From the NCBI RefSeq assembly GCF_051903065.1, contig NZ_CP178438.1: DNA of 64,000 nucleotides. One strand, given 5' to 3'. The notes beneath the pieces were generated by a model, which ran no database searches, was not told where the DNA came from, and saw nothing but the letters and a program-made list of their open reading frames with translations. Source of the stretch: Escherichia coli. Its GTDB lineage: Bacteria > Pseudomonadota > Gammaproteobacteria > Enterobacterales > Enterobacteriaceae. This document shows positions 21,100 through 58,871 of the stretch, one piece after another (the first letter of the stretch is position 1; every line of letters starts with the position of its first letter). The position numbers were made by a program, and so were the translations under genes.

Positions 21100-21222
21100 A
21101 CGCTTTTCCTTGTGGATCTCAACTCGCCAGCACCTATCTTACATGCCGGTCCGTATCAGAGATACTTTTTGAGTGGCTTTGCCGGTGATTAAAAATCAAG
21201 GAGGGTGTAACGACAAGTTGCA

Positions 21223-21400
21223 GGCACAAAAAAACCACCCGAAGGTGGTTTCACGACACTGCTTATTGCTTTGATTTTATTCTTATCTTTCCCATGGTAC
21301 CCGGAGCGGGACTTGAACCCGCACAGCGCGAACGCCGAGGGATTTTAAATTCTACGCAGGATCAATGAGTTACATAGCAGTGCATTGCGAAACTTTGCTG
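21223..21400. repeat. att direct repeat copy 1 (host-side leuZ terminator, displaced 56-nt 3' end of tRNA-Leu at 21295-21350, and about 50 bp of shared element-end sequence)
   Basis: Near-identical to 23538-23712; the part through gggattttaaat matches 58630-58754 inside intact leuZ. Confidence 0.85.
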
Positions 21401-22171: not shown

Positions 22172-22939
22172 GGTGATGCTGCCAACTTACTGATTTAGTG
22201 TATGATGGTGTTTTTGAGGTGCTCCAGTGGCTTCTGTTTCTATCAGCTGTCCCTCCTGTTCAGCTACTGACGGGGTGGTGCGTAACGGCAAAAGCACCGC
22301 CGGACATCAGCGCTATCTCTGCTCTCACTGCCGTAAAACATGGCAACTGCAGTTCACTTACACCGCTTCTCAACCCGGTACGCACCAGAAAATCATTGAT
22401 ATGGCCATGAATGGCGTTGGATGCCGGGCAACAGCCCGCATTATGGGCGTTGGCCTCAACACGATTTTACGTCACTTAAAAAACTCAGGCCGCAGTCGGT
22501 AACCTCGCGCATACAGCCGGGCAGTGACGTCATCGTCTGCGCGGAAATGGACGAACAGTGGGGCTATGTCGGGGCTAAATCGCGCCAGCGCTGGCTGTTT
22601 TACGCGTATGACAGGCTCCGGAAGACGGTTGTTGCGCACGTATTCGGTGAACGCACTATGGCGACGCTGGGGCGTCTTATGAGCCTGCTGTCACCCTTTG
22701 ACGTGGTGATATGGATGACGGATGGCTGGCCGCTGTATGAATCCCGCCTGAAGGGAAAGCTGCACGTAATCAGCAAGCGATATACGCAGCGAATTGAGCG
22801 GCATAACCTGAATCTGAGGCAGCACCTGGCACGGCTGGGACGGAAGTCGCTGTCGTTCTCAAAATCGGTGGAGCTGCATGACAAAGTCATCGGGCATTAT
22901 CTGAACATAAAACACTATCAATAAGTTGGAGTCATTACC
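22172..22939 (+). mobile_element. insAB: IS1 copy 1 (768 bp, insA 22227-22502, insB frame 22421-22924), no target-site duplication
   Basis: Left end ggtgatgctgccaacttactgat and right end aagttggagtcattacc; Ins[40 protein letters not shown]; flanking 9-mers differ (catgacttc vs gccgcttca). Confidence 0.95.
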
Positions 22940-23364
22940 GCCGCTTCACGCAATATCATTTCAGGCTGGCCCGGGAGCTTAATATTCCTCCCCAGGCAAT
23001 CGTGTATGCCAATCTACTGGCGTGGGATTACGACGGACTGACCCCTCTCAATCGCCCTCAAAATGAAGTGCAGGAAGTTATATTAGCCTCGCTGAAGCTG
23101 CTGGCGGTACAAATTAAACACCTTGAGCCTGATTTCATCATCTTTGCATCTGGAGCCCGGAGAACAGACTACATCATAAAACAGGTGCTTACTGAGCTGG
23201 GCGGCTATGAGACTTCTGCAGTCATTCCGGGGAAGCTATGGGAGTTCAAAACAGGTAATGCAATCTGTTTCAGAATTGCCCATCCAAGGGCTATGCGCGG
23301 ACACAAGAAGTACAGAGATGAGGTGATTGCACGAATTAAGCAACTTTGTACTCAGGGTGGCTAG
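22940..23364 (+). pseudogene. 3' fragment of the 57717-58457 gene (UDG-like), truncated by IS1
   Basis: 22940-23600 is near-identical to 58033-58698; translation YANLLAWDYDGLTPLNRPQNEVQEV... matches the C-terminal 141 codons of the 246-aa protein. Confidence 0.8.
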
Positions 23365-23537
23365 AGCATTACAGTTTGCTCAGCAGGCCCCCCCTTCCCG
23401 GAAGAGTACCGGAAAACAGGCAAAGCGGCCTGGTTCTCTATGCTGGAGGCGACACGTTCAATTCGGCATTGCCAGGCTGTAGATTGCAGCTCATTGCACC
23501 CCGTGAGCACAGGATATGCACAGGGCGTGAATTGCAT

Positions 23538-23712
23538 GCACAAAAAAACCACCCGGAGGTGGTTTCACGACACTGCTTATTGCTTTGATTATTCTGATGT
23601 TTCCCATGGTACCCGGAGTGGGACTTGAACCCACACAGCGCGAACGCCGAGGGATTTTAAATTCTACGTAGGATCAATGAGTTACATAGCAGTGCATTGC
23701 GAAACTTTGCTG
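23538..23712. repeat. att direct repeat copy 2 (internal; terminator plus tRNA-Leu 3' fragment 23607-23662 with two substitutions)
   Basis: Aligns with copy 1 and copy 3; followed by element-end sequence that diverges after gaaactttgctg. Confidence 0.85.
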
Positions 23713-38093: not shown

Positions 38094-38777
38094 TCAATGC
38101 AGACAGCACCTCTTAAATTTTTTACCGCTGCCACACGGACACGGGTCATTTCGCCCGGGCATGTTTTCTGCCCCCTTCACTGGAACAGGCCGGGATGATG
38201 CCTCTGACATTCTCACTGACAACCAGTACTGATAAAGTGCCAGTGCAGCAGGCTGAATAAGGGAAATACTTTTCTCAAACTGCTCTCCGGTCATTTTCTC
38301 AAGTACAGGAAAATTCTTCTCCACGCCATGAAGAGCGATCACTTCCAGAGAAGGCCGTAACTCACCGGGAAGACCAGACCAGTCATCCAGTGACTTTCCT
38401 TTCATATAACCAAAACACCACTCTTCCACAATGGTATATTTTTCCCCCTTTACCTCACGCTCATTGAAAATCGGTTCAAACTGTTCAGGGGCCTCATACA
38501 GGCAGCCAGCGATATCGTTCATATGCTGAAAACACAGCCCCACAAAACGCGTCATCTCTTTTTCGGTGGTCCAGCGAGGGTGGTAATCACCTCGCCCCCA
38601 GATAGCACTGAGCCAGGTATTAGGGGAAATCGTATTCGGGCCAGAGACAATCGCTGTCAGAAAGCCATCCAGCTCAGAGAAACAGAGCACAGAATCATCA
38701 TTGCCGTATTTCAGCAACACCTCTTCCAGCCAGTCGATTTCCCGGTCAATCAGCGGCCCGCTTTTCGTCAGTTTCAT
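38094..38777 (-). CDS. YecA-like UPF0149 / SEC-C motif protein, paralogue of chromosomal yecA, inside the hsd operon
   Basis: 227-aa ORF MKLTKSGPLIDREIDWLEEVLLKYG... aligns along its length with YecA (20434-21099), including [11 protein letters not shown] and the terminal [21 protein letters not shown]; start overlaps hsdS stop, 49 bp before hsdR. Confidence 0.85.
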   Translation of the reverse strand: MKLTKSGPLIDREIDWLEEVLLKYGNDDSVLCFSELDGFLTAIVSGPNTISPNTWLSAIWGRGDYHPRWTTEKEMTRFVGLCFQHMNDIAGCLYEAPEQFEPIFNEREVKGEKYTIVEEWCFGYMKGKSLDDWSGLPGELRPSLEVIALHGVEKNFPVLEKMTGEQFEKSISLIQPAALALYQYWLSVRMSEASSRPVPVKGAENMPGRNDPCPCGSGKKFKRCCLH

Positions 38778-40012
38778 TCGGCAACCGCCTCATCGACCTT
38801 AACACGACGTTTGCCAGTCAGTAGCTGTTGCATCAGGGCTTTTTTCTCATCTCTCAGGCAGGCGAGTTTTTTCTCCAGCGTGGAGATTTCGGCATCGGCG
38901 ACGGACAGGACGGCGGCGATTTTTTGTTGTTCTCTTATACTGGGTAAGTCTAGTTCAAACTCTTTAACCATTCCGGCGTTTAGGTTGGACTGTGTACCTT
39001 GCTGGCCTTGTAGTTTTATTTTTTCTTTTAATGATGTAAGATAGAAATATAAAAACTCATAATTTAAACAATCTTTTGGTCTAATACCCAAGATTGCCTG
39101 CGAAGATGTTAAATTTACAGCAGCAATGCTGCATTCACCTATAGAAGCATACATAGCATAAAGAACCGAGTTTTTTGGATATATTCTTGCGGATGAACTG
39201 TTCAATCCTAATTCAGTCAGATATTTTTCAGTTGTAGCAATCCACTTTCCATTAGATGTCATATCAGAAATAGATACCCATGGGATATTCCCGCCATAAT
39301 ACTCTTCAACCGTTGATTTCGGAGTACCTCCACTGTTCATATCGGCTATCGCACCCAGTTTTACTCTCTTCCACTCCCCACTAAACCTCACCCCATTCTC
39401 ATCCAGCAAGCGTTTCTTCCCGGTAAGTAATTGCTGCATCAGGGCTTTTTTCTGCTGCTGACTATTGGCGAGCAGCTTTTCCGTCACTGAAATCGCGTTA
39501 TCCCAGGTTGACAAGATTTTGGCTATTTTCTTTTGTTCCGCCAGTGGGGGGAGTAATACAGGAAAACCGCAAACATCATCACGTGTAATATTAGGGTCTT
39601 TACGACTACTTGCCGCAAATTTCTTCCATAATTTTACATTCCCGTTTAAGTAATTCAGGATATATGCTGGTTCTGCTTTATCACGATCGAGTATAAGACC
39701 GGATAATGCTTGGTTTATTGCTGCCGGTATAGTGAGAAGTCCAGTTCTTCCGATCTGGTTAAAGCCTCCATACATCGCTACTAAAACAGTACCAACAGGA
39801 AATACAGAGCAAGATGTTTCTAAAAGGGCTGTGTCAGTAATTTTCTCATCAGTTGAGATAATTTCACCGTTATTTAGGTCTAATGTCTTTACCCATGGAG
39901 TACCAGCAGTAGAAAAATAACGCTCTCCCTCAGCCCTCAGCGGAGTAGATCCAGATTTAATTTTTGCTATGTCCGATAATTTGACATGTCTCCAGCCAGG
40001 TTTGAGCTTCAT
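38774..40012 (-). CDS. hsdS: type I restriction-modification specificity subunit
   Basis: 412-aa ORF with two target-recognition halves and conserved HsdS core LLTGK(K/R)RL; overlaps hsdM stop. Confidence 0.88.
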   Translation of the reverse strand: MKLKPGWRHVKLSDIAKIKSGSTPLRAEGERYFSTAGTPWVKTLDLNNGEIISTDEKITDTALLETSCSVFPVGTVLVAMYGGFNQIGRTGLLTIPAAINQALSGLILDRDKAEPAYILNYLNGNVKLWKKFAASSRKDPNITRDDVCGFPVLLPPLAEQKKIAKILSTWDNAISVTEKLLANSQQQKKALMQQLLTGKKRLLDENGVRFSGEWKRVKLGAIADMNSGGTPKSTVEEYYGGNIPWVSISDMTSNGKWIATTEKYLTELGLNSSSARIYPKNSVLYAMYASIGECSIAAVNLTSSQAILGIRPKDCLNYEFLYFYLTSLKEKIKLQGQQGTQSNLNAGMVKEFELDLPSIREQQKIAAVLSVADAEISTLEKKLACLRDEKKALMQQLLTGKRRVKVDEAVAE

Positions 40013-46364: not shown

Positions 46365-48058
46365 GAACACAGCAAATAATGCTAATAATGCACTGAACAT
46401 TCTTCCTGAAGCAGCAAACGGCTTTGTTGAATAAATCGAACTTTTGCTGAGTTGAAGGATCAGATCACGTATCTTCCCGACAACGCAGACCGTTCCGTGG
46501 CAAAGCAAAAGTTCAAAATCACCAACTGGCCCACCTACAATAAAGCCCTCATCAACCGTGGCTCCATAACTTTCTGGCTGGATGATGAAGCTATTCAGGC
46601 CTGGTATGAGTCAGCAACACCTTCTTCACGAGGCAGACCTCAGCGCTATTCTGACCTTGCCATCACGACTGTGCTGGTCATTAAACGCGTATTCAGGCTG
46701 ACCCTGCGCGCTGCGCAGGGCTTTATTGATTCCATTTTTTCTCTGATGAACGTTCCGCTACGCTGCCCGGATTACAGCTGTGTCAGCAGGCGGGCAAAGT
46801 CGGTTAATGTCAGTTTCAAAACGCCCACCCGGGGTGAAATCGCACACCTGGTAATTGATTCCACCGGGCTGAAGGTCTTCGGTGAAGGCGAGTGGAAAGT
46901 CAAAAAGCATGGCCAGGAACGCCGCCGTATCTGGCGTAAGCTGCATCTCGCCGTTGACAGTAAAACACATGAAATCATCTGCGCTGACCTGTCGCTGAAC
47001 AACGTTACGGACTCAGAGGCCTTCCCCGGGTTAATCCGGCAAACCCACCGGAAAATCAGGTCAGCCGCCGCCGATGGCGCTTACGATACCCGGCTATGTC
47101 ACGATGAACTGCGGCGTAAGAAAATCAGCGCGCTTATCCCTCCCCGAAAAGGTGCGGGTTACTGGCCCGGTGAATATGCAGACCGTAACCGTGCAGTGGC
47201 TAATCAGCGAATGACCGGGAGTAATGCGCGGTGGAAATGGACAACAGATTACAACCGTCGCTCGATAGCGGAAACGGCGATGTACCGGGTAAAACAGCTG
47301 TTCGGGGGTTCACTGACACTGCGTGACTACGATGGTCAGGTTGCAGAGGCTATGGCCCTGGTACGAGCGCTGAACAAAATGACGAAAGCAGGTATGCCTG
47401 AAAGCGTGCGTATTGCCTGAAAACACAACCCGCTACGGGGGAGACTTACCCGAAATCTGATTTATTCAACAAAGCCGCAGCAAACACAGCTGTAGACAAC
47501 GATGAAAAATATCTGTCCTTTGCATTAGTTCTCGCTATCACGATTATGGACAACTTAGTAAAGCTCATCGGCACAGATGGCTTCGTACTTTATACCTACA
47601 CCCTGCAGGACACGGCTACTGCTCGTGCTGTTTTTAATGAATTAGCCAGGCGTCTCAAAAATTTCAATCGTCAGGAGGAGGTCTACACCACCGATTCCCT
47701 CACCTTTCGAATGAAATACATTTACGGTGTTACCCTGTTCGAACATGATAGTAAATCTATCCTTAACCTCTTTGATAAGAAGGGTTATCCGGTATTGAGT
47801 GAATCAGGAGAACCCGGTTCTCTTGATGATATGTATCTTGACATTCAAGCCCGATTACATGGCGGCTACGCCTCAAAAAAGTTTCTTCATTTACATGAAC
47901 ATTGTCTGTTATCTGCACACGTTACCCCGTCTGTGGAAAAGACGCAACGCGGTATCCTGATTAAAGTAGGCAGGAAACTCGTTTCCTTTATCCATGTAGA
48001 TGATGAATCACACAAAACCGATATTTTCAAATCTGTAGTAAATGTTATTAAATCTTGA
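46354..48058 (+). pseudogene. small ORF interrupted by IS903 after codon 22; the 3' part persists as a 170-aa ORF (47546-48058)
   Basis: ATG at 46354 (MVTKNTANNANNALNILPEAAN) runs into the IS; removing the IS and one TSD copy restores an in-frame ORF of about 212 codons ending 48058. Confidence 0.65.
46420..47476 (+). mobile_element. IS903-like element (IS5 family, 1057 bp; transposase ORF 46452-47420) with 9-bp target-site duplication
   Basis: Terminal inverted repeats ggctttgttgaataaatcg / cgatttattcaacaaagcc; 322-aa DDE transposase ORF; TSD gcagcaaac at 46411-46419 and 47477-47485. Confidence 0.9.
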
Positions 48059-48066
48059 TTCTTTAT

Positions 48067-48094
48067 GCCGGGACACAGCTCCCGGCATTTTTTC
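48067..48094 (+). terminator. hairpin plus T-run between the interrupted ORF and the polymerase gene (terminator or attenuator)
   Basis: Stem gccggga/tcccggc followed by attttttc, 11 bp before the RBS and ATG at 48105. Confidence 0.45.
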
Positions 48095-48104
48095 GGAGTT
48101 AACT

Positions 48105-50705
48105 ATGAGCAATAATTTGCAGGACATCCTCGCTGCCGCCTCGGGGTATCAGTCCGTGACTTCAGAGCCAGCGTTCAATCGTAAAAGACCTAAAACGCTT
48201 GATGATTATCCTGTGATACCACCTGCATCAAAAAAAGTATCTGTTATTTCAAGTGACCTGACACTCCATATCGGTTTTGATACCGAATATGTTTTCAACC
48301 CTGAAACACGACAGAATGATATTCTGTCATATCAGAGTTATGTTGTCTTACCCGATAATACAGGTATATCGAACATTATCTATCCACCTGACTCACAGAA
48401 AAAATCCCGGCTGTCTTTTAAGGAATTTCTCTGTCAAACGATTACACCGCTTCTTGAAACGGGTGTGATTACAAAATGGCCCGGTATTATTAATATATAT
48501 GCGCATTTCATTCGTGCGGATATCGCCTCCTTTGCCAATTTCTGGTCAGACTACAAAATTCTTCTGAAAGGAATACGCGGTACTGTCAGCAGCTTCAAAA
48601 ATCGTTACGGTATCGATTTTGATGAACAGCAGGAACGTCGCGTAAAGACTGAACAGATAATGTTTGACAAACGAACTTCCCCTCCGCGTTGCAGTAACGT
48701 AGCTTTCATCGATACACTGCTTATCACTCCCGGGGGTATGGGTCTGGCTGAATGTGGTGAATTACTGGGTCTTCCCAAACTCACCATTCCTGCACCTTAT
48801 TCCATAACCAATATGCGTGAATATCTTCTGGGCGACAGAGCAGGGTTTGAAGCCTATGCTCTGCGGGATGCCGAGATTGCGGTTCGTTATGCTTTACAGG
48901 TTCGCAATTTTTGCGCCCGGGAGCTGATGATTGATCGTGTCCCCGCCACCATCGGGGCGATGGCAGTTTCACGGTTCACCAAAACACTTAAAGAAAACAA
49001 TATGTCTCCTGAAGTCTGCCTTGGGACACACATTAAAACCCGTGAACTCTGGCTCACGGAGAAACAGGCATTCCGGACGATTAAAAACCCCGCCAGTGTT
49101 CCTTCAAGAGAGTTGTTTGAAACGTTCCCGATCAACTGTTACCACGGCGGACGCAATGAGTGTTTTATGATGGGGGTTACACCGTCTGATCACTGGTATG
49201 ACTACGATCTGGCTGGAGCGTATACCACCGGGCTATTAGATATCCTCACACCCGATTACGGGAACATCCGCCTCAGTAAAAATCCGGACGATTACTGTGG
49301 GCATGTAATGGGATTTGCGCTTGTCACATTTCGGTTCCCGGAATCAGTTCCCTATCCCAGCCTGCCGGTTCGGACCGATCAATATGGGTTATTCTTTCCA
49401 TTAAGTGGCGAATCATGGGCAACGGCACCTGAAATCGAACTTGCTCTGTCGCTCGGGGCAGAGATGACGATCCATAATGGGATCATCGTCCCCTGGATCT
49501 GTGACACCTCCCCACATAACAGCGAATCAACATCGGTGTTTCTTCCCTTTGTTCAACAGGTCCGTGAGAACCGTAATCGCCATATTAAAGGTTCTCTGGA
49601 GGAGAAATTCTGGAAAGAAATTGGCAACTCGCTTTATGGCAAACTTGCTCAGGGCCTTCGCGCCAAAACCGCCTTTGATACTGCCCGTGGATTAAACAGA
49701 TCCCTCCCACCATCATCGGTTACTCAGCCATTCTTTGCTGCGCATGTGACGGGATTTATCCGCGCCGTTGTCGGGGAACTCATGAATGCTTTGCCTTCTG
49801 ATTCATCGGTTGTCAGCGTCACAACCGATGGTTTTTTGACAAATTGCCCACTTGACAAGATAAACATGAGCGGTCCACTGTCTTCCCGCTTCCAGTCGCT
49901 GTGCGATATTGTTGATCCGGGTTCATCAATGTTGACATGTAAGCATGAGGTCAGCCAGCTTATCGCCATGAAAACCCGGGGGCAGTTAACCTATAGAGCT
50001 ATTCAGGGAAAACCTGTTGTTCATGCCAGGGCTGGCGTCAAACCTCCTGCCGATATTCCACGCAGTGACTATAACGACTATATGGTAGATCTTTACCTTA
50101 ATCGTTTACCCGGTCAGACGTTATCCCGAAGTACGTTGATATCAACGCGTGAGATGTGGCTCTCGGAAAGCGATCTGGTATCCCGGGAACAGGATATCCG
50201 TCTTAATCTGGAATTCGATTTCAAACGCCAGCCCGTACAGCCCGCCATGAATGAAGGGCATTTACTGATGTTTTCCCGCCCGTGGGATAATATGGAAGAG
50301 GCTCTGCAGCAACGCTCTCTTTTCGACGACTGGCGGCAAACGCATACACTGAAGACCCTGGCTGACTGGGATGACTGGTGTGATTTTCTCTATTGCCGGA
50401 CGGTGTTTTCTGATATGAAACTAAAAGTCGGAAGCAAACGTAGTGATGATATTTTAGTCAGACTATTTCTCCGGGCGCTGACTCAGTGCCAATGGGGGCT
50501 GATGCTGAAAGATAAAAAAAGTTATTCCTGTAAAGAGGTTGCTGAATGGCTGACGTCAGAAGGCTATTCAGTAACGGTGACTGATGTAAAAAATGCGGTA
50601 AGAGCAAAAATACCCCAAATGAAATTTAGTTCTGTAACACCGCGAATGAAGTCACTGATGGATATCATAGCCCGTAAATATCCGACATTCTGTCTTCCAG
50701 TCTGA
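48105..50705 (+). CDS. family-B DNA polymerase with piPolB-like motifs (pipolin primer-independent PolB)
   Basis: Exo I in LHIGFDTEYVF; YALRD (Exo III-like); KTRG in AMKTRGQLTY; motif B KEIGNSLYGKLAQ; motif C SVTTDGFL; RBS ggag before ATG 48105. Confidence 0.8.
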   Translation: MSNNLQDILAAASGYQSVTSEPAFNRKRPKTLDDYPVIPPASKKVSVISSDLTLHIGFDTEYVFNPETRQNDILSYQSYVVLPDNTGISNIIYPPDSQKKSRLSFKEFLCQTITPLLETGVITKWPGIINIYAHFIRADIASFANFWSDYKILLKGIRGTVSSFKNRYGIDFDEQQERRVKTEQIMFDKRTSPPRCSNVAFIDTLLITPGGMGLAECGELLGLPKLTIPAPYSITNMREYLLGDRAGFEAYALRDAEIAVRYALQVRNFCARELMIDRVPATIGAMAVSRFTKTLKENNMSPEVCLGTHIKTRELWLTEKQAFRTIKNPASVPSRELFETFPINCYHGGRNECFMMGVTPSDHWYDYDLAGAYTTGLLDILTPDYGNIRLSKNPDDYCGHVMGFALVTFRFPESVPYPSLPVRTDQYGLFFPLSGESWATAPEIELALSLGAEMTIHNGIIVPWICDTSPHNSESTSVFLPFVQQVRENRNRHIKGSLEEKFWKEIGNSLYGKLAQGLRAKTAFDTARGLNRSLPPSSVTQPFFAAHVTGFIRAVVGELMNALPSDSSVVSVTTDGFLTNCPLDKINMSGPLSSRFQSLCDIVDPGSSMLTCKHEVSQLIAMKTRGQLTYRAIQGKPVVHARAGVKPPADIPRSDYNDYMVDLYLNRLPGQTLSRSTLISTREMWLSESDLVSREQDIRLNLEFDFKRQPVQPAMNEGHLLMFSRPWDNMEEALQQRSLFDDWRQTHTLKTLADWDDWCDFLYCRTVFSDMKLKVGSKRSDDILVRLFLRALTQCQWGLMLKDKKSYSCKEVAEWLTSEGYSVTVTDVKNAVRAKIPQMKFSSVTPRMKSLMDIIARKYPTFCLPV

Positions 50706-50753: not shown

Positions 50754-51080
50754 TCACAGGCAATCGGCATCAAAACAGTGAAATAACTGCCGCGCGTCAG
50801 GATGGCCATTTACATGATAGATCCGCATGGCATGACAGGTGATACTCTGGAGATTAGCCGCCAGCCTTTTCCCCATATTCACCAGTATGCCGTGTGGTAT
50901 TTTACTGCTTGTACTGTTTACTGTCAGAGTAAAACAATTTGTTTCAACGCTGACCTCAATAAAATCATTTCCAAATAATGTACCGACAACCTGCCTGATT
51001 GTTTCTTCATAATCTGTCAGATCAATGACATCACGCCATCTCGCATTTACGAGTTGATACTTTCTGATATGTAAATACAT
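50754..51080 (-). CDS. hypothetical protein (108 aa)
   Basis: ORF MYLHIRKYQLVNARWRDVIDLTDYEETIRQ; divergent from the WYL regulator gene; no recognisable motif. Confidence 0.45.
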   Translation of the reverse strand: MYLHIRKYQLVNARWRDVIDLTDYEETIRQVVGTLFGNDFIEVSVETNCFTLTVNSTSSKIPHGILVNMGKRLAANLQSITCHAMRIYHVNGHPDARQLFHCFDADCL

Positions 51081-51459: not shown

Positions 51460-52362
51460 ATGGGTAAGCACGATAAACTTGGATATCGACTCGGATTGAT
51501 ATTAACTCGCCTGAACAATGGTGAGTCACTAGCCGTCCGGGAGTTATCTGAGGAATTTAACGTTTGCGAAAAAACTATCCGTCGCGATCTTACTCAGCGC
51601 CTGTCCTATCTTAATCTGATTCGACAAAATGGTCGCTATCGCCTGTCTGACGGTGTTCTCGGTCAACGCAGCAATGCTGATTTACGTCATTTCACGCGCA
51701 TCCTGGGTATTGAAGGGCTGTTCCCTCGCTGGGATGACAGACTACTGAGTATTTTGTTAGGTAACACGAAAAATAACCCGTTTCTGATAAAACAACGTCC
51801 ATACGAAAACTGCGGATCATTCATGTCAATTCTGAATGTATTATCCGATGCCATCCTGTCACAGAAGAAAGTAAATTTTAATTACAAAGATAAAGAGTTT
51901 CGGGCTGTTGAGCCATACAGACTGGTTAATGACAACGGATTGTGGTATCTCGCTGCCGCCCATGACAGTACATTAAAAAGCTTTGTTATCTCATCTGTCA
52001 AAGACGTTTGCATGAGTAATATCTCTTTCAGGATAATCCCCGAAATTAATGAAAAAATAGAAAAGACAGATGGTATCTGGTATAGCGAAGACCTTATCGA
52101 AGTTCTCATTTCAGTTTCCGCACATGTTGCTCCGTGGTTTACCCACCGTCATCTATTGCCAGGACAGGAAATAATTCATACTTCCCGGTCTGGCGATTTA
52201 CTGGTGATATCACGTGTAACACACACAGATCAGATAATGCCTTTAATGAAATACTGGATACCGGATGTCGAAGTAATACAACCGGCCTCAATCCGTCAAC
52301 AACTTGCTGAAGATATACAATCCGCACTGAAACGTTACACCCAGCCAAGTAACGCCCCGTAA
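51460..52362 (+). CDS. HTH plus WYL-domain transcriptional regulator (BrxR/CapW-like)
   Basis: 300-aa ORF; N-terminal [37 protein letters not shown]; WYL motif in [13 protein letters not shown]. Confidence 0.75.
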
Positions 52363-53317: not shown

Positions 53318-54085
53318 GGTGATGCTGCCAACTTACTGATTTAGTGTATGATGGTGTTTTTGAGGTGCTCCAGTGGCTTCTGTTTCTATCAGCTGTCCCT
53401 CCTGTTCAGCTACTGAAGGCGTGGTGCGTAACGGTAAAAGTACTGCCGGACATCAGCGCTATCTCTGCTCTCACTGCCGTAAAACATGGCAACTGCAGTT
53501 CACTTACACCGCTTCTCAACCCGGTACGCACCAGAAAATCATTGATATGGCCATGAATGGCGTTGGATGCCGGGCAACCGCCCGCATTATGAGCGTTGGC
53601 CTCAACACGATTTTCCGCCATTTAAAAAACTCAGGCCGCAGTCGGTAACCTCGCGCATACAGCCGGGCAGTGACGTCATCGTCTGCGCGGAAATGGACGA
53701 ACAGTGGGGCTATGTCGGGGCTAAATCGCGCCAGCGCTGGCTGTTTTACGCGTATGACAGGCTCCGGAAGACGGTTGTTGCGCACGTATTCGGTGAACGC
53801 ACTATGGCGACGCTGGGGCGTCTTATGAGCCTGCTGTCACCCTTTGACGTGGTGATATGGATGACGGATGGCTGGCCGCTGTATGAATCCCGCCTGAAGG
53901 GAAAGCTGCACGTAATCAGCAAGCGATATACGCAGCGAATTGAGCGGCATAACCTGAATCTGAGGCAGCACCTGGCACGGCTGGGACGGAAGTCGCTGTC
54001 GTTCTCAAAATCGGTGGAGCTGCATGACAAAGTCATCGGGCATTATCTGAACATAAAACACTATCAATAAGTTGGAGTCATTACC
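53318..54085 (+). mobile_element. insAB: IS1 copy (768 bp; insA 53373-53648, insB frame 53567-54070) with 9-bp target-site duplication
   Basis: IS1 terminal repeats; TSD ttgatatgg at 53309-53317 and 54086-54094; InsA differs from copy 1 at a few residues. Confidence 0.95.
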
Positions 54086-54100
54086 TTGATATGGATTCGA

Positions 54101-54328
54101 TTAAAAATTTCGTCTAACTCGTTCCCTTATCAAACTTGCCAGCCTTACCCTTCCAGGTGAAATAGTTTCCGTTACAGTTTCAACTCTCAACAAATCACGC
54201 TGTCCGGTTCGGCGACTGACCGCGAAACGCTGACATATATCATTAACCGATACCGTATTACCGGTATACAGTTGAAGTAATATCCAGCACAGCCTTTCTG
54301 CGATCCTTTCACCGCGAGTTTTATACAT
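54101..54328 (-). CDS. small HTH protein (75 aa) resembling the N-terminal HTH of WYL/DeoR-type regulators
   Basis: ERLCWILLQLYTGNTVSVNDICQRFAVSRRTGQRDL parallels the HTH of the 51460 regulator; natural stop 7 bp from the IS1 TSD. Confidence 0.4.
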   Translation of the reverse strand: MYKTRGERIAERLCWILLQLYTGNTVSVNDICQRFAVSRRTGQRDLLRVETVTETISPGRVRLASLIRERVRRNF

Positions 54329-54629
54329 CTGTAAAACCTTCAGTTATCGTCAACGATGACATAGCCCACCTCAAAACCCACATAACTGACTGTATTCATG
54401 AACATTTATTACCGGTGTAATACTGTCGTTGGGGTAATGGATTAACCGTTATCACCCTGCTACAGGAGAATGCTCCATAGGGGGCAAAAACCACGAGGGA
54501 TCTGAGATCCCCCGTGTCTGCACTTGTTTATGCGAACAGCCAGGAAAAAGAGACATCATCTCCATGCTGTGATGCACGCCACATGCAGTAGATTACAAAG
54601 CCGCCCGCTTTCTTCCTGTTCATAACGGG

Positions 54630-55064
54630 TCAACAACTTTCCACAGTTACCGTTACCCGGTAAATCCCCATAGAGAGATACTCCATAAAATTACGCTCCC
54701 ACAGGGACCAGAGTTCATTCCTCTCTGCTGCCAGTGAAATATCCCCAATCAGATAATGGAATACATAATTCCCCGACCAGCAAAAATCAATTTCTTTTTC
54801 CAGCTCAGGGTAGACACGCCCCATATAACTAAAATCTGTGACATAATCAAAATACCATTCATTATTCTTACGGATAAACCGTATTTCAACGGGATGAAAG
54901 CCCCCGGATTCTGCACTGTAGTCCGGATCACGGAAATTAATAACCACTGCCTCAGTTATTTTTTGTAAAACCTGATTTGCCAGAAGAGTAGTAATATGCT
55001 GCTGAAATTCTTTAGTAACAGGCAGAGTTAATCCTGCCTGTTTTAAGGCATATTGGGTTTGCAT
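54630..55064 (-). CDS. hypothetical protein (144 aa)
   Basis: ORF MQTQYALKQAGLTLPVTKEFQQHITTLLANQ; co-oriented with the integrase-proximal small genes. Confidence 0.5.
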   Translation of the reverse strand: MQTQYALKQAGLTLPVTKEFQQHITTLLANQVLQKITEAVVINFRDPDYSAESGGFHPVEIRFIRKNNEWYFDYVTDFSYMGRVYPELEKEIDFCWSGNYVFHYLIGDISLAAERNELWSLWERNFMEYLSMGIYRVTVTVESC

Positions 55065-55136
55065 AATAAATTTTCCTTTAGAAAGTAAATAGCGGTGTGT
55101 GGTGATTTCTGGTTGTATAACAGTGCAGGAAATAAA

Positions 55137-55670
55137 TTAATCCTCTGTAATCTTTTCCTGGCTACTGATCGTATTAAGTTTATTCAACCGCTCCCTCCAG
55201 TCCGGGTATAATACATGAGTAAATAACTTCTCTGGATGTGCCTCCAGCAGACATATATCCGGGGAGCGTAAAACAGCAGCCAGAAAACCTGCATTGTTGG
55301 CGCTTGCCCCTTTGAATAGCGGCCTGAATACTCCGGATGAGAAGCCGGTAGCAGGTTGTGTTTCCAGAACGGTTGCAATCTTTGAAAGTGAGATCCAGTC
55401 CTTAGAGAACAACCCTCCACAGCCATTTGCCACCAGACGAAGATAAAGTTCATTGTCCACCTCTGATATCGCCAGTTGCCATGTCAGCATACCACTTGCC
55501 TTAGGACTGATTTTTTCTGCCTGGCCTGTTTCAATGAGCAACTGATAGTCTTTTACATCAGATAATGTTTGTTCATCTGCACTGAGATTTTCATGAATAA
55601 CCTCTGCCTCATTTTTAATCTCCTTCGAAACTGACTCAACATTATTTTTAACTAATTTTGATTTACTCAT
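55137..55670 (-). CDS. hypothetical protein (177 aa)
   Basis: ORF MSKSKLVKNNVESVSKEIKNEAEVIHENLSADEQ; no recognisable motif. Confidence 0.5.
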   Translation of the reverse strand: MSKSKLVKNNVESVSKEIKNEAEVIHENLSADEQTLSDVKDYQLLIETGQAEKISPKASGMLTWQLAISEVDNELYLRLVANGCGGLFSKDWISLSKIATVLETQPATGFSSGVFRPLFKGASANNAGFLAAVLRSPDICLLEAHPEKLFTHVLYPDWRERLNKLNTISSQEKITED

Positions 55671-55695
55671 TTTGCGTTCCTGGTTTTGCTTGTGT

Positions 55696-56067
55696 TTAAT
55701 AGCGTGATTCGGCCATAGAAATTAATAAATCAATACCCTTCAGAGGGCAATCGGGGTGAAATAACAGATAAATACCGTTCCCGTTATCTTCCGTAACAGA
55801 AAGCATCAGGTAATAGTCATCTGTCAGACGGACTACAAATTCTGGATTTGCAATTAACTGATGAATCACATTTAATACCTGCGCTTTAATATCTTCAGGT
55901 ACATCATCGGGCTCGACATATATTAATGTCACCCCGACTTCATCCCAGAAACTCATTGCAGAGTATTCATCTTCAAATGGGAGTACCAGCTCTGTTTTCA
56001 ACAGACTCATTACTGACTCCGGAAGAGATAGTGATGGCAGACTTTGCCAGTTAGCGATAAACTTCAT
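55696..56067 (-). CDS. hypothetical acidic protein (123 aa)
   Basis: ORF MKFIANWQSLPSLSLPESVMSLLKTELVLPFEDEY; Asp/Glu-rich. Confidence 0.5.
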   Translation of the reverse strand: MKFIANWQSLPSLSLPESVMSLLKTELVLPFEDEYSAMSFWDEVGVTLIYVEPDDVPEDIKAQVLNVIHQLIANPEFVVRLTDDYYLMLSVTEDNGNGIYLLFHPDCPLKGIDLLISMAESRY

Positions 56068-56163
56068 TGTTCAATCCTTATAAGTAAAAAACCCCGATAC
56101 AATTAACGTATCGGGGTTTTTATACATGCGCATAACTATTATTTACAGTTATTGGTTTTCTAT

Positions 56164-56406
56164 TTAAATTCTTTCATAATATCCACAGTCCATACAGATA
56201 AGAACTGGAGCATTATTCCTTTCACACTGTTCAAGGAATCCAAATAGTTTTTTAATAGCCTTAATAATTTCTTTCAGTATTTCAGGTAAAAACTCCAGGC
56301 TAATATACCCAGAGCGTTTATTATCGGTTATTGATGGCAGTTTTCCTGCTGAACTTATCAATGTATTACAACTGCCACACTGTGGGCATTTTAAATGCAT
56401 CCTCAT
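56164..56406 (-). CDS. hypothetical zinc-ribbon protein (80 aa)
   Basis: Two CxxC pairs: CPQCGSC near the N-terminus and CMDCGYY near the C-terminus. Confidence 0.5.
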   Translation of the reverse strand: MRMHLKCPQCGSCNTLISSAGKLPSITDNKRSGYISLEFLPEILKEIIKAIKKLFGFLEQCERNNAPVLICMDCGYYERI

Positions 56407-56436: not shown

Positions 56437-57666
56437 TCACATCTGCTTCGTAGCCGCAGTATTCAGAAGCAGGTCAGTCACTCCCTGCCCTGTCTGACGC
56501 ATACGTTCCGGTGTTAATTTCGCGTAACGTTCTGTACTCTGAATACTGGCATGCGCCAGTTGGGCTTTAACGTCATACAGGCTGAATTGACCACTCGAAA
56601 CCAGTAAAGAGGCAACAGAATGACGTGTGGTGTGAAAACAGACTTCATTCTTGTCTATACCGCACTGTGCCAGTATTTTTTCATATGCCCATCGGGGTTC
56701 CGATATCGGTTTTCCATTATCCTTAATGGCGAACAGATACGGATTACTGCCAACTCGTGGGATAGCATCAATAATCGATAATGCGGCATCGCTTAGATAT
56801 ACCGTCCGACTGCGACCATTTTTTGTATAAGGAATGAACAGAGTACGATTGGCCCGGTCGATATGTTCATGCCTGACATTAAGCATTTCTGATTTGCGTG
56901 TACCGGTTAACAACAACATGGCTATCAATCCCCCGGCAGCTTTGTTGGGATATTGGGTAGCAGCGTCAAGAATGCGCCTGATCTCATCAGCATCAAAAAA
57001 GCGCGTCCGCTGATTATTCTCTTTCAGTAAAGGGATCTTATCGGCTTCATTCTTTTCCAGCACATCCTGTCGCAACGCATAACGCCCCATCGTTTTCAGA
57101 ATAGCAAGGGCTCTGTTACAGGTAGACGGCGCATATTGCTGCCCGTGAATACGCCCCTCCAGCATGTCAAACAGCACCTGTTGTATCTCTCTGGCCCTGA
57201 GATCGCAGTAACGTATCTTTCCCAGACGAGGTTCAATGTATTGCGTGAAACGCTGAACATCCTTATCCCAGGACTTTTTATGGCGCTTGATGAACGGAAC
57301 ATAGGTCTGGTGAAAAAACTCACTAAGCGTTGGCATCGCACGATAATTATCGCGCTCTGCCTTGGGGTCATTTCCAAGTGCAATCGCCTCCTTATGACGG
57401 CGAGCTATCTGGCGAGCTGTCCCCACATCAATTTCAGGGAATCTGCCAATACTGATACTTTTTTTGGTACCGTGGAATGTGTAGCGCAGGAGGAAACGTT
57501 TGTTACCCGTTCGACCTGAGAGACATTTGAGGCCAATAACTTCGGTATCAGATACCTCAAGCTCTGTAGATCGGGTATCTGTGTTTGCCGGAAGGGCTTT
57601 GATGGATGAATTGGTGAATCGGAAGGATTTTTGCATATTTATCCTCATGTATCTGATTGATATCAT
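56437..57666 (-). CDS. tyrosine-type site-specific integrase (P4-like), next to the att/leuZ junction; start may be the internal Met at 57636
   Basis: 409-aa ORF; catalytic motifs LLTGTRKSEM, HTTRHSVASLL and ERYAKL. Confidence 0.88.
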   Translation of the reverse strand: MISIRYMRINMQKSFRFTNSSIKALPANTDTRSTELEVSDTEVIGLKCLSGRTGNKRFLLRYTFHGTKKSISIGRFPEIDVGTARQIARRHKEAIALGNDPKAERDNYRAMPTLSEFFHQTYVPFIKRHKKSWDKDVQRFTQYIEPRLGKIRYCDLRAREIQQVLFDMLEGRIHGQQYAPSTCNRALAILKTMGRYALRQDVLEKNEADKIPLLKENNQRTRFFDADEIRRILDAATQYPNKAAGGLIAMLLLTGTRKSEMLNVRHEHIDRANRTLFIPYTKNGRSRTVYLSDAALSIIDAIPRVGSNPYLFAIKDNGKPISEPRWAYEKILAQCGIDKNEVCFHTTRHSVASLLVSSGQFSLYDVKAQLAHASIQSTERYAKLTPERMRQTGQGVTDLLLNTAATKQM

Positions 57667-57716: not shown

Positions 57717-58457
57717 ATGGAAAAGCTATTAGACGCGTACAAACGGATATTGCAGGAAGTTAACGCCCAGTCATTTAACCTGAATGAGGATAAATACTCA
57801 GGCGTATTTTTACCCGTACCCTTTGAAGAATACTGGCATTCACCGGTAAAAATCATGCTGGTTGGACGTGAAACCGCAGGCTGGAATACGCTGAATGGTA
57901 AGAATACGATATCACGGGTGTTGGGACTTATACCTGACGTTACCATCGGGCAAGTGGTTGAAGAAGCTGTAGATCGTTACAGGAAACATCTTCCGGTACA
58001 AAATTATGGCACCGCCAACCTCAAATCACGTAGCCGCTTCACGCAATATCATTTCAGGCTGGCCCGGGAGCTTAATATCCCTCCTCAGGCTATCGTGTAT
58101 GCCAATCTACTGGCGTGGGATTACGACGGACTGACCCCTCTCAATCGCCCTCAAAATGAAGTGCAGGAAGTTATATTAGCCTCGCTGAAGCTGCTGGCGG
58201 TACAAATTAAACACCTTGAGCCTGATTTCATGATCTTTGCATCCGGAGCCCGGAGAACAGACTACATCATTAAACAGGTGCTTACTGAGCTGGGCGGTTA
58301 TGAGACTTCTTCAGTCATTCCGGGGAAGCTGTGGGAGTTCAAAACAGGTAATACAATCTGTTTCAGAATTGCCCATCCAAGGGCTATGCGCGGACACCAG
58401 AAGTACAGAGATGAGGTGATTGCACGAATTAAGCAACTTTGTACTAAGGGCGGCTAG
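57717..58457 (+). CDS. putative uracil-DNA glycosylase-like protein (assignment tentative)
   Basis: 246-aa ORF; possible UDG-like motifs VGRETAGW and AHPRAM by position only; its 3' part is duplicated at 22940-23364. Confidence 0.45.
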   Translation: MEKLLDAYKRILQEVNAQSFNLNEDKYSGVFLPVPFEEYWHSPVKIMLVGRETAGWNTLNGKNTISRVLGLIPDVTIGQVVEEAVDRYRKHLPVQNYGTANLKSRSRFTQYHFRLARELNIPPQAIVYANLLAWDYDGLTPLNRPQNEVQEVILASLKLLAVQIKHLEPDFMIFASGARRTDYIIKQVLTELGGYETSSVIPGKLWEFKTGNTICFRIAHPRAMRGHQKYRDEVIARIKQLCTKGG

Positions 58458-58629
58458 AGCATTACAACTTGCTCAGCAGGCCCCCCTTCCCGGAAGAGTA
58501 CCGGAAAACAGGCAAAGCGGCCTGGTTCTCTATGCTGGAGGCGACACGTTCAATTCGGCATTGCCAGGCTGTAGATTGCAGCTCATTGCACCCCGTGCGC
58601 ACAGGATATGCACAGGGCGTGAATTGCAT

Positions 58630-58754
58630 GCACAAAAAAACCACCCGAAGGTGGTTTCACGACACTGCTTATTGCTTTGATTATTCTGATGTTTCCCATG
58701 GTACCCGGAGCGGGACTTGAACCCGCACAGCGCGAACGCCGAGGGATTTTAAAT
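58630..58754. repeat. att direct repeat copy 3 (element-borne terminator plus the 3' 56 nt of intact leuZ)
   Basis: Matches copies 1 and 2 through gggattttaaat, after which the intact tRNA continues. Confidence 0.85.
58634..58657 (-). terminator. Rho-independent terminator of the glyW-cysT-leuZ operon (also present in att copies 1 and 2)
   Basis: Minus-strand hairpin aaccacc-ttcg-ggtggtt followed by ttttttt. Confidence 0.75.
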
Positions 58755-58785
58755 CCCTTGTGTCTACCGATTCCACCATCCGGGC
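58699..58785 (-). tRNA. leuZ: tRNA-Leu (UAA anticodon)
   Basis: Reverse complement reads GCCCGGATGGTGGAATCGGTAGACACAAGGGATTTAAAATCCC...CTCCGGGTACCA (87 nt, CCA end). Confidence 0.95.
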
Positions 58786-58797
58786 TCGGGAAGAAAG

Positions 58798-58871
58798 TGG
58801 AGGCGCGTTCCGGAGTCGAACCGGACTAGACGGATTTGCAATCCGCTACATAACCGCTTTGTTAACGCGCC
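58798..58871 (-). tRNA. cysT: tRNA-Cys (GCA anticodon)
   Basis: Reverse complement reads GGCGCGTTAACAAAGCGGTTATGTAGCGGATTGCAAATCCG...GCGCCTCCA (74 nt). Confidence 0.95.

Follow-up and report, generated by a model that had tools for sequence, protein, structure and literature searches.

Pipolins are islands at tRNA genes that carry a primer-independent type-B DNA polymerase (piPolB), the defining motif of which is KH-X8-KTRG in place of KxY (PMC5695915). In gammaproteobacteria, the pipolin core has been described as an SXT-type integrase, DUF2787, a WYL regulator, and orphan proteins (Mateo-Caceres and Redrejo-Rodriguez, NAR 2024, PMC11551731), and "DUF2787 and 2 orphan proteins" serve as markers of that core (PMC11551731). 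The same paper treats pipolin islands as defence islands that spread among hosts rich in restriction-modification (R-M) systems and already mentions pipolin-like islands lacking PolB (PMC11551731). No published function for the core genes was found in the literature searched. Here, we describe an island in a 64,000-nt window of the Escherichia coli chromosome (assembly GCF_051903065.1, contig NZ_CP178438.1; with 100% identity to strain 23CRST027 in the region compared) and five small open reading frames (ORFs) downstream of its integrase near the attachment site (att). The island is very probably an E. coli pipolin and the five ORFs its att-proximal backbone genes in three transcription units: the zinc-ribbon gene Zn80 together with the integrase; a triad formed by p123, p177, and a DUF2787 gene; and the helix-turn-helix (HTH) gene HTH75. 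The gene module itself is already described; what is new here are the folds predicted for the orphan proteins, two extra small genes, the three-unit layout, and the decoupling of the triad from the integrase.

We identify the island as a pipolin because its polymerase carries the published piPolB motif. The 887-amino-acid (aa) protein encoded at positions 48042 to 50705 (plus strand), annotated as a type-B DNA polymerase family protein, had no match in the Pfam or NCBIfam models and was assigned by motif, which reads KHEVSQLIAMKTRG at K613/H614/K623/R625 (PGAP numbering). Direct, att-like repeats at 23532 to 23712 and 58624 to 58804 bound an island of ~35 kb, and the right-hand repeat, which marks the element boundary, overlaps a tRNA-Leu gene (58699 to 58785), as in other pipolins. 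One flank of the island carries uvrC, pgsA, and a tRNA Gly-Cys-Leu cluster, and three tRNAs were the sole matches in an Rfam search. The gene order also matches the published core module. Element type (a piPolB island at a tRNA gene), position by an SXT-type integrase, and content (DUF2787, "orphan" proteins, and a nearby WYL regulator) are the same, and nothing differs in kind. The cluster is anchored by the att-proximal, IntSXT-type tyrosine integrase (56437 to 57666, minus strand; Phage_integrase E = 8.5e-24, Arm-DNA-bind_3 E = 2.9e-14), which is annotated as a site-specific integrase. The WYL-domain regulator, a co-inherited backbone gene, lies at 51460 to 52362 on the plus strand (WYL E = 1.4e-10, WCX E = 9e-10, HTH_DeoR E = 3e-8).

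All five small ORFs lie on the minus strand downstream of the integrase, as an earlier reading made from the letters alone (the sequence-only reading) had proposed, and the genes are conserved in related elements. From the integrase on, they are Zn80 (56164 to 56406), p123 (55696 to 56067), p177 (55137 to 55670), the DUF2787 gene (54630 to 55064), and HTH75 (54101 to 54328), with intergenic gaps of 30, 96, 25, 72, and 301 bp and a Shine-Dalgarno-like sequence ahead of each ORF. Every frame stays open in the EC24 locus at ~80% nucleotide identity, and the same gene order, again with five open frames, recurs in Citrobacter, Buttiauxella, Enterobacter, and Intestinirhabdus. Relative to EC24, the ratios of nonsynonymous to synonymous substitution rates (dN/dS) were 0.16 for Zn80, 0.13 for p123, 0.17 for p177, and 0.11 for DUF2787; for HTH75, synonymous sites were saturated and 77% of residues were kept. 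These sequence comparisons indicate that the five ORFs are intact genes under purifying selection and not chance ORFs. The block was found in 443 of 5,426 complete E. coli genomes, on the chromosome in every case. In the region-identical genome, PGAP annotates three of the five genes and omits Zn80 and HTH75, which are small but conserved and are overlooked by standard annotation in most cases.

The cluster is better described as three transcription units than as one operon, since predicted intrinsic terminators occur at 56116 to 56086 and at 54516 to 54492. The first (56086 to 56116, minus strand) lies between Zn80 and p123 and consists of a 9-bp GC-rich stem, a 7-nt loop, and a T6 tract. It reads CCCCGATAC-GTTAATT-GTATCGGGG followed by T6, ends ~19 nt before the p123 start codon, and has a folding z score of -5.0 against shuffled controls. 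Across eight loci that represent at least five genera, the flanks diverge but stem and T-tract do not vary, and a GC-rich hairpin with a U-tract, unrelated in sequence, occupies the same position in five of six distant lineages in which integrase and triad are co-oriented. Where the integrase is divergent or another gene precedes p123, the hairpin is missing, which identifies it as the terminator of the upstream gene; for the same reason, we rejected the hairpin as a regulatory element in the 5' untranslated region of the triad. As predicted from sequence, then, this terminator insulates the triad from integrase transcription. The second, terminator-like hairpin (54492 to 54516, minus strand; 11-bp stem with seven GC pairs and a T-rich tail) lies ~115 nt after the DUF2787 stop codon, at the end of the triad operon. 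No promoter of the triad was recognized. Here and in several unrelated lineages (L011, L012, L033, L037, and L043), a terminator hairpin ends 15 to 25 nt ahead of the p123 start codon, without evident space for a promoter in between, and candidate explanations for transcription of the triad are read-through or a promoter that overlaps the hairpin.

The wider distribution of the triad was surveyed at 45 loci, seven obtained through individual homologues and 38 from a scan of reference genomes; all were analyzed by profile searches, with p177 as the seed and flanks of 10 kb. The loci span Enterobacterales, Vibrionales, Aeromonadales, Alteromonadales, Oceanospirillales, Marinobacter, and one Zoogloea. 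Beside p177, p123 was present in 37 of 45 loci and DUF2787 in 36. A tyrosine integrase lay within 4 kb of p177 in 43 loci. In 20 of these it precedes p177 and in 13 it follows p177, both times on the same strand; in the other 10 it precedes p177 on the opposite strand. The WYL regulator lay no more than 6 kb from p177 in 23 of the 45, and PolB within 10 kb in 13; in 10 others, a DUF927 protein was present. The triad therefore extends beyond pipolins to islands without PolB within 10 kb.

The DUF927 loci include a sister lineage in Edwardsiella, Enterobacter, Pseudocitrobacter, Buttiauxella, Kluyvera, and Citrobacter (L007, L021, L022, L024 to L026, L028, and L030), in which a 653-aa DUF927 protein lies between two integrases and no PolB was found within 10 kb. 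Its backbone comprises the integrase, p123, p177, usually DUF2787, and HTH75, with the WYL regulator and p108 (a 108-aa ORF described below) in most loci and an LRAT-like gene in several. This arrangement suggests that the replication gene has been swapped on a common backbone. Marine lineages have a Gly-zipper peptide ahead of p123 and a YkvA/DUF1232-like protein of ~100 aa between p123 and p177; the small-membrane-protein loci of these lineages are L009, L039, L041, L044, and L049 (upstream of p123 or p177) and L006, L012, L033 to L036, L038, L040, L043, and L053. The E. coli lineage lacks both small membrane proteins and has the zinc-ribbon gene instead.

Proximity of an integrase at nearly all loci might suggest that the triad serves it, as a recombination directionality factor or in excision control of the SXT-type integrase, and the sequence-only reading had listed excision control among possible roles. 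The att-proximal integrase of E. coli has no recognizable excisionase beside it, and p177 may, judging from its predicted structure, bind DNA. However, divergence of the triad is not matched by that of the integrase. Pairwise divergence of p177 tracked that of p123 (rho = 0.59), DUF2787 (0.51), the WYL regulator (0.55), and PolB (0.76; 55 pairs) but not that of the adjacent integrase (Spearman rho = 0.13), in correlations of identity computed on local alignments, with many close relatives among the loci. In the Edwardsiella-type lineage, p177 is 51 to 53% identical to that of the window, and the integrase only 27 to 30%. Excision control tied to the integrase is disfavored on this ground. In addition, terminators insulate the triad where it is co-oriented with the integrase, and some loci have an AlpA-type gene next to the triad, which implies that the role of excision factor is already filled there. 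Factors of the Xis, AlpA, and TorI type resemble the triad in being integrase adjacent, and p177 may resemble them in binding DNA by a winged helix; p177 differs in being larger than classical Xis proteins, in not being basic, in its lack of co-divergence with the integrase, and in its coexistence with AlpA-type genes. An integrase accessory is thus a quite unlikely role. The relevant functional unit would be the three-gene triad, insulated from the integrase, with p177 as its likely DNA-binding component.

The sequence-only reading had also grouped the small ORFs with the accessory, in particular anti-defence, genes that often lie close to integrases on mobile elements. Their distribution fits this poorly. 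None of the triad proteins was found in 50,697 phage records, and among 72,556 plasmids searched at the protein level, p177 occurred on 2 and DUF2787 on 15; in the one case examined of a plasmid with adjacent p177 and DUF2787, the pair again lay beside an integrase. Absence from phages and near absence from plasmids place these genes in island backbones, and what had been taken for integrase-proximal cargo is a conserved pipolin core. Members of the known anti-defence families are widespread in phages and on plasmids, which makes the distribution of the triad atypical of such families.

The predicted proteins bear on the same question. p123, the first gene of the triad, encodes an acidic alpha/beta protein (isoelectric point [pI] 4.08, net charge -14) that founds a family of ~120-aa proteins with 133 representatives (50% clustering, E <= 1e-3). 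Its acidity, noted in the sequence-only reading, is a trait of the whole family: the median net charge is -12, and 93% of 100 representatives have a pI below 5. The AlphaFold2 (AF2) model of p123 has a pLDDT of 94.4, and its fold has no match among PDB or viral structures; no Pfam family covers p123, and profile searches with p123 and p177 against PDB sequences returned nothing significant. The proposal that p123 is a DNA mimic accordingly keeps its acidity, in which p123 resembles ArdA and Ocr, and loses sequence and fold similarity to such proteins. For the alternative offered with it, an immunity protein, a motif (NPEFV...DNGNGIYLL) suggestive of the SUKH/SMI1 type was followed up; this assignment was rejected, as neither a Pfam profile nor a fold match supported it. 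The confidently predicted fold of p123, lacking a solved or viral counterpart, could represent a new class of decoy or modulator.

DUF2787, the last gene of the triad, encodes a 144-aa protein that belongs to PF10980 (E = 3.8e-40; 137.5 bits against a cutoff of 27, covering profile positions 2 to 126 of 126) and matches PDB entries 2W56 (VC0508; E = 4e-26) and 2V1L (E = 3e-24). Its relative VC1805 is a monomeric Mam33/p32-like protein without known function (PMC2881812), and a Mam33/p32-like fold is predicted for the island protein by homology. Both VC0508 and VC1805 of Vibrio cholerae are clear homologues without a known function that likewise lie on integrase-bearing genomic islands (VSP-II and VPI-2, respectively). 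The net charge of the DUF2787 protein is -7 here, with a family median of -10. On a large E. coli plasmid (L014), DUF2787 occurs with RadC, and its other neighbors there are unrelated to p123 and p177: as distant homologues of either they were rejected (hhalign probability < 1%), as was a 174-aa Aeromonas protein in the p123 position (hhalign probability < 1%). In the vc0508-vc0510 region of VSP-II, VC0510 is annotated as a DNA repair protein.

It is possible that acidic p123, DUF2787, or both act as decoys, either nucleic acid mimics or protein sponges, that blunt host restriction and other defences upon entry of the island into a new cell. Acidity is conserved in both families (medians of -12 and -10). 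RadC-type genes often accompany anti-restriction genes on islands, and DUF2787 adjoins RadC elsewhere in integrase-proximal positions (plasmid L014 and VSP-II vc0508-vc0510); pipolins, moreover, move between R-M-rich hosts. Like ArdA and Ocr, p123 and DUF2787 are small, strongly acidic, and encoded on mobile elements. Unlike those inhibitors, however, they have no sequence or fold similarity to ArdA or Ocr and are absent from phages, DUF2787 as well as p177 is very rare on plasmids, and p123 has neither fold similarity to solved DNA mimics or inhibitors nor a viral relative. The triad is also a slowly evolving core (dN/dS, 0.11 to 0.17) and not a variable accessory set, and a decoy role would leave the winged-helix-like domain of p177 unexplained. 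We regard an establishment or anti-defence role as doubtful; for a classical anti-restriction role, there is no support beyond acidity.

In p177, a disordered tail is predicted at the N terminus and, after it, a beta-meander and a winged-helix-like domain. The top fold matches of the predicted model are winged-helix DNA-binding domains, although these matches are weak, and p177 is therefore a putative DNA-binding core of the triad at most at the level of the model. Considering the evidence as a whole, the explanation that we favor, tentatively and at somewhat less than even confidence, is a backbone triad whose products would form a DNA-bound complex serving the island's own life cycle. The triad would be an ancient, co-inherited unit of gammaproteobacterial integrative islands, neither exchangeable defence or anti-defence cargo nor an integrase-specific excision factor. 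In this scheme, p177 may bind DNA through its winged-helix-like domain, and p123, with its new fold, and Mam33/p32-like DUF2787 may be its acidic partners or modulators; for an element that has been excised or has just arrived, the complex would control the switch to that state and the element's maintenance or replication. Complex formation, binding to DNA, and the role in the life cycle are each inferred with low confidence. The genes examined here are the most conserved part of such islands besides the polymerase and the integrase, which makes them obvious candidates for the missing functions in excision, replication, and spread, and the triad a well-defined candidate for mobility or establishment. 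Pipolins and their relatives are widespread, and they serve as reservoirs of anti-phage defence systems.

Several observations weigh against a DNA-bound complex of this kind. Because the survey was seeded on p177, its co-occurrence figures are conditional on that gene, and PolB may lie further off than the 10-kb flanks. The conserved acidity of p123 and DUF2787 would fit a decoy or anti-defence role equally well, no iterons or repeated operator or binding sites for p177 were found near the module, and a purely DNA-bound complex leaves the small membrane proteins of the marine lineages unexplained. Finally, neither the host nor the integrated state of the island requires the triad, as enterotoxigenic E. 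coli H10407 demonstrates (L002, 12545 to 13982): its p123 is truncated to 57 aa and its DUF2787 gene has an internal stop, while p177 is intact. The triad is decaying in some E. coli lineages.

The membrane proteins of the marine operons, one with a Gly-zipper and one YkvA/DUF1232-like, would find a place if the triad were instead an addiction or abortive-infection module resembling a toxin-antitoxin system, in which p123 neutralizes p177 or a membrane effector and thereby stabilizes the island or protects the host. In keeping with such a reading, a small acidic protein precedes a larger partner; p123 and p177 overlap by 8 bp in the Edwardsiella lineage, which is consistent with translational coupling, and pipolins are defence islands. 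H10407 nevertheless keeps a p177 identical to that of the window (WP_000045627.1 in both genomes) beside its truncated p123, which is hard to square with p177 as a toxin restrained by p123, and the four upstream ORFs had no PADLOC match, nor were there matches to toxin or antitoxin families. We consider a toxin-antitoxin role distinctly improbable. Less probable still, and very unlikely in our view, is that the triad lets integrase-bearing islands without transfer genes be carried along by a helper, either a phage or a conjugative element, as satellites are. According to the pipolin literature, horizontal transfer is evident and conjugation and virion genes are absent, and the triad is a constant of the backbone irrespective of the replication gene that an island carries. 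Against this stand the lack of similarity to known satellite hijacking proteins, the lack of phage homologues, and the excision of pipolins, which is reported to be negligible under standard growth conditions. In a broader form, the triad could be a self-contained, hitherto uncharacterized system of a broad class of gammaproteobacterial, integrase-bearing defence islands that lack transfer genes (pipolins and their PolB-less kin), supplying either establishment and anti-defence on entry or helper exploitation; we hold this to be rather unlikely.

The two remaining small genes lie outside the triad operon. HTH75 (75 aa) is a stand-alone, basic putative small regulator of the HTH_11/DeoR type (pI 11.3; HTH_11 E = 2e-4), with all HTH_11/DeoR matches below the Pfam cutoffs. 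It has 16 distinct orthologues of 74 to 88 aa in three enterobacterial lineages, which share an invariant ERL..G..SV..F..RT..RDL pattern, and the Edwardsiella orthologue is of the same size (38% identity, E = 9e-14). One genome annotates the gene as a DeoR-family regulator; usually it is unannotated. The resemblance to the N-terminal half of the neighboring WYL regulator proposed in the sequence-only reading is present but weak (26% identity, E ~1e-3) and covers the first ~45 to 50 of 300 residues rather than half of the protein; a PADLOC match to the N terminus of a WYL regulator (E = 1e-4) agrees with it. No WYL or WCX domain was found by Pfam, by PADLOC, or by alignment to the WYL regulator, and HTH75 does not qualify as a WYL regulator itself. 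The BrxR/CapW-type WYL regulators known from defence islands share its class of N-terminal HTH, whereas HTH75 has only 75 aa, a size kept in three lineages. HTH75 is an independent small gene and not a gene fragment, and it is probably a local transcriptional regulator. Directly upstream of its start, an imperfect inverted repeat (54333 to 54396; 15-nt arms, 80% complementary, 34 nt apart) could be an operator and could equally be a chance match.

An IS1 insertion sequence (53318 to 54085, plus strand; 23-nt inverted repeats) lies between a DUF726 gene and HTH75, 6 bp beyond the HTH75 stop codon, with a 9-bp target duplication, TTGATATGG, and is not part of the module. It is strain specific: among the genomes listed, it is present only in two that are 100% identical, and matches in the others start at query base 7. 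We considered whether HTH75 is the remainder of a WYL regulator disrupted by IS1 and rejected this, as its native stop codon precedes the target duplication by 6 bp and a gene of the same size is present in other genera and in genomes that lack the IS. Another copy of IS1 begins at 22172.

Zn80, the first gene after the integrase, encodes 80 aa (likely 78 aa from Met3) and is a zinc-ribbon protein, as the sequence-only reading had it. Residues C7, C10, C71, and C74 (CPxC...CxxC) are invariant in eight distinct orthologues, giving the two CxxC pairs of a zinc ribbon with predicted metal binding; the other two cysteines are not conserved. The match to Pfam Zn_Ribbon_YjdM (20.3 bits) falls below the threshold of 30.8, while phrog_32727 is matched at E = 1e-57. 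Compared with EC24, Zn80 shows an in-frame indel. The gene is restricted to the Escherichia/Citrobacter/Buttiauxella/Enterobacter pipolin lineage, and its homologues are almost all from E. coli. A small annotated HTH gene, distinct from HTH75, adjoins the second integrase, next to which the pipolin literature puts the excisionase.

Other features of the island lie outside the cluster. A 246-aa ORF (57717 to 58457, plus strand) between the att-proximal integrase and att/tRNA-Leu had no Pfam or NCBIfam match and is kept beside the integrase in other genera. The 3' part of this ORF, together with the att/tRNA-Leu segment, is included in a stretch at the right end of the island (58033 to 58804) that is duplicated at the left boundary (22940 to 23712) with 97 to 99% identity, and a third att-like copy is found at 21218 to 21400, 2.3 kb further out. 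The duplication suggests tandem accretion or that a second element at this tRNA site has left a remnant. p108 (50754 to 51080, minus strand), which has no family assignment and is located between PolB and the WYL regulator, is kept in the pipolin and DUF927 lineages, in 9 of 45 loci (12254 to 12562 in L007). The type I R-M operon of the island contains an unusual insertion, a gene annotated as YecA/YgfB family between its S and R genes (~38096 to 38779; L001, 4017 to 4700).

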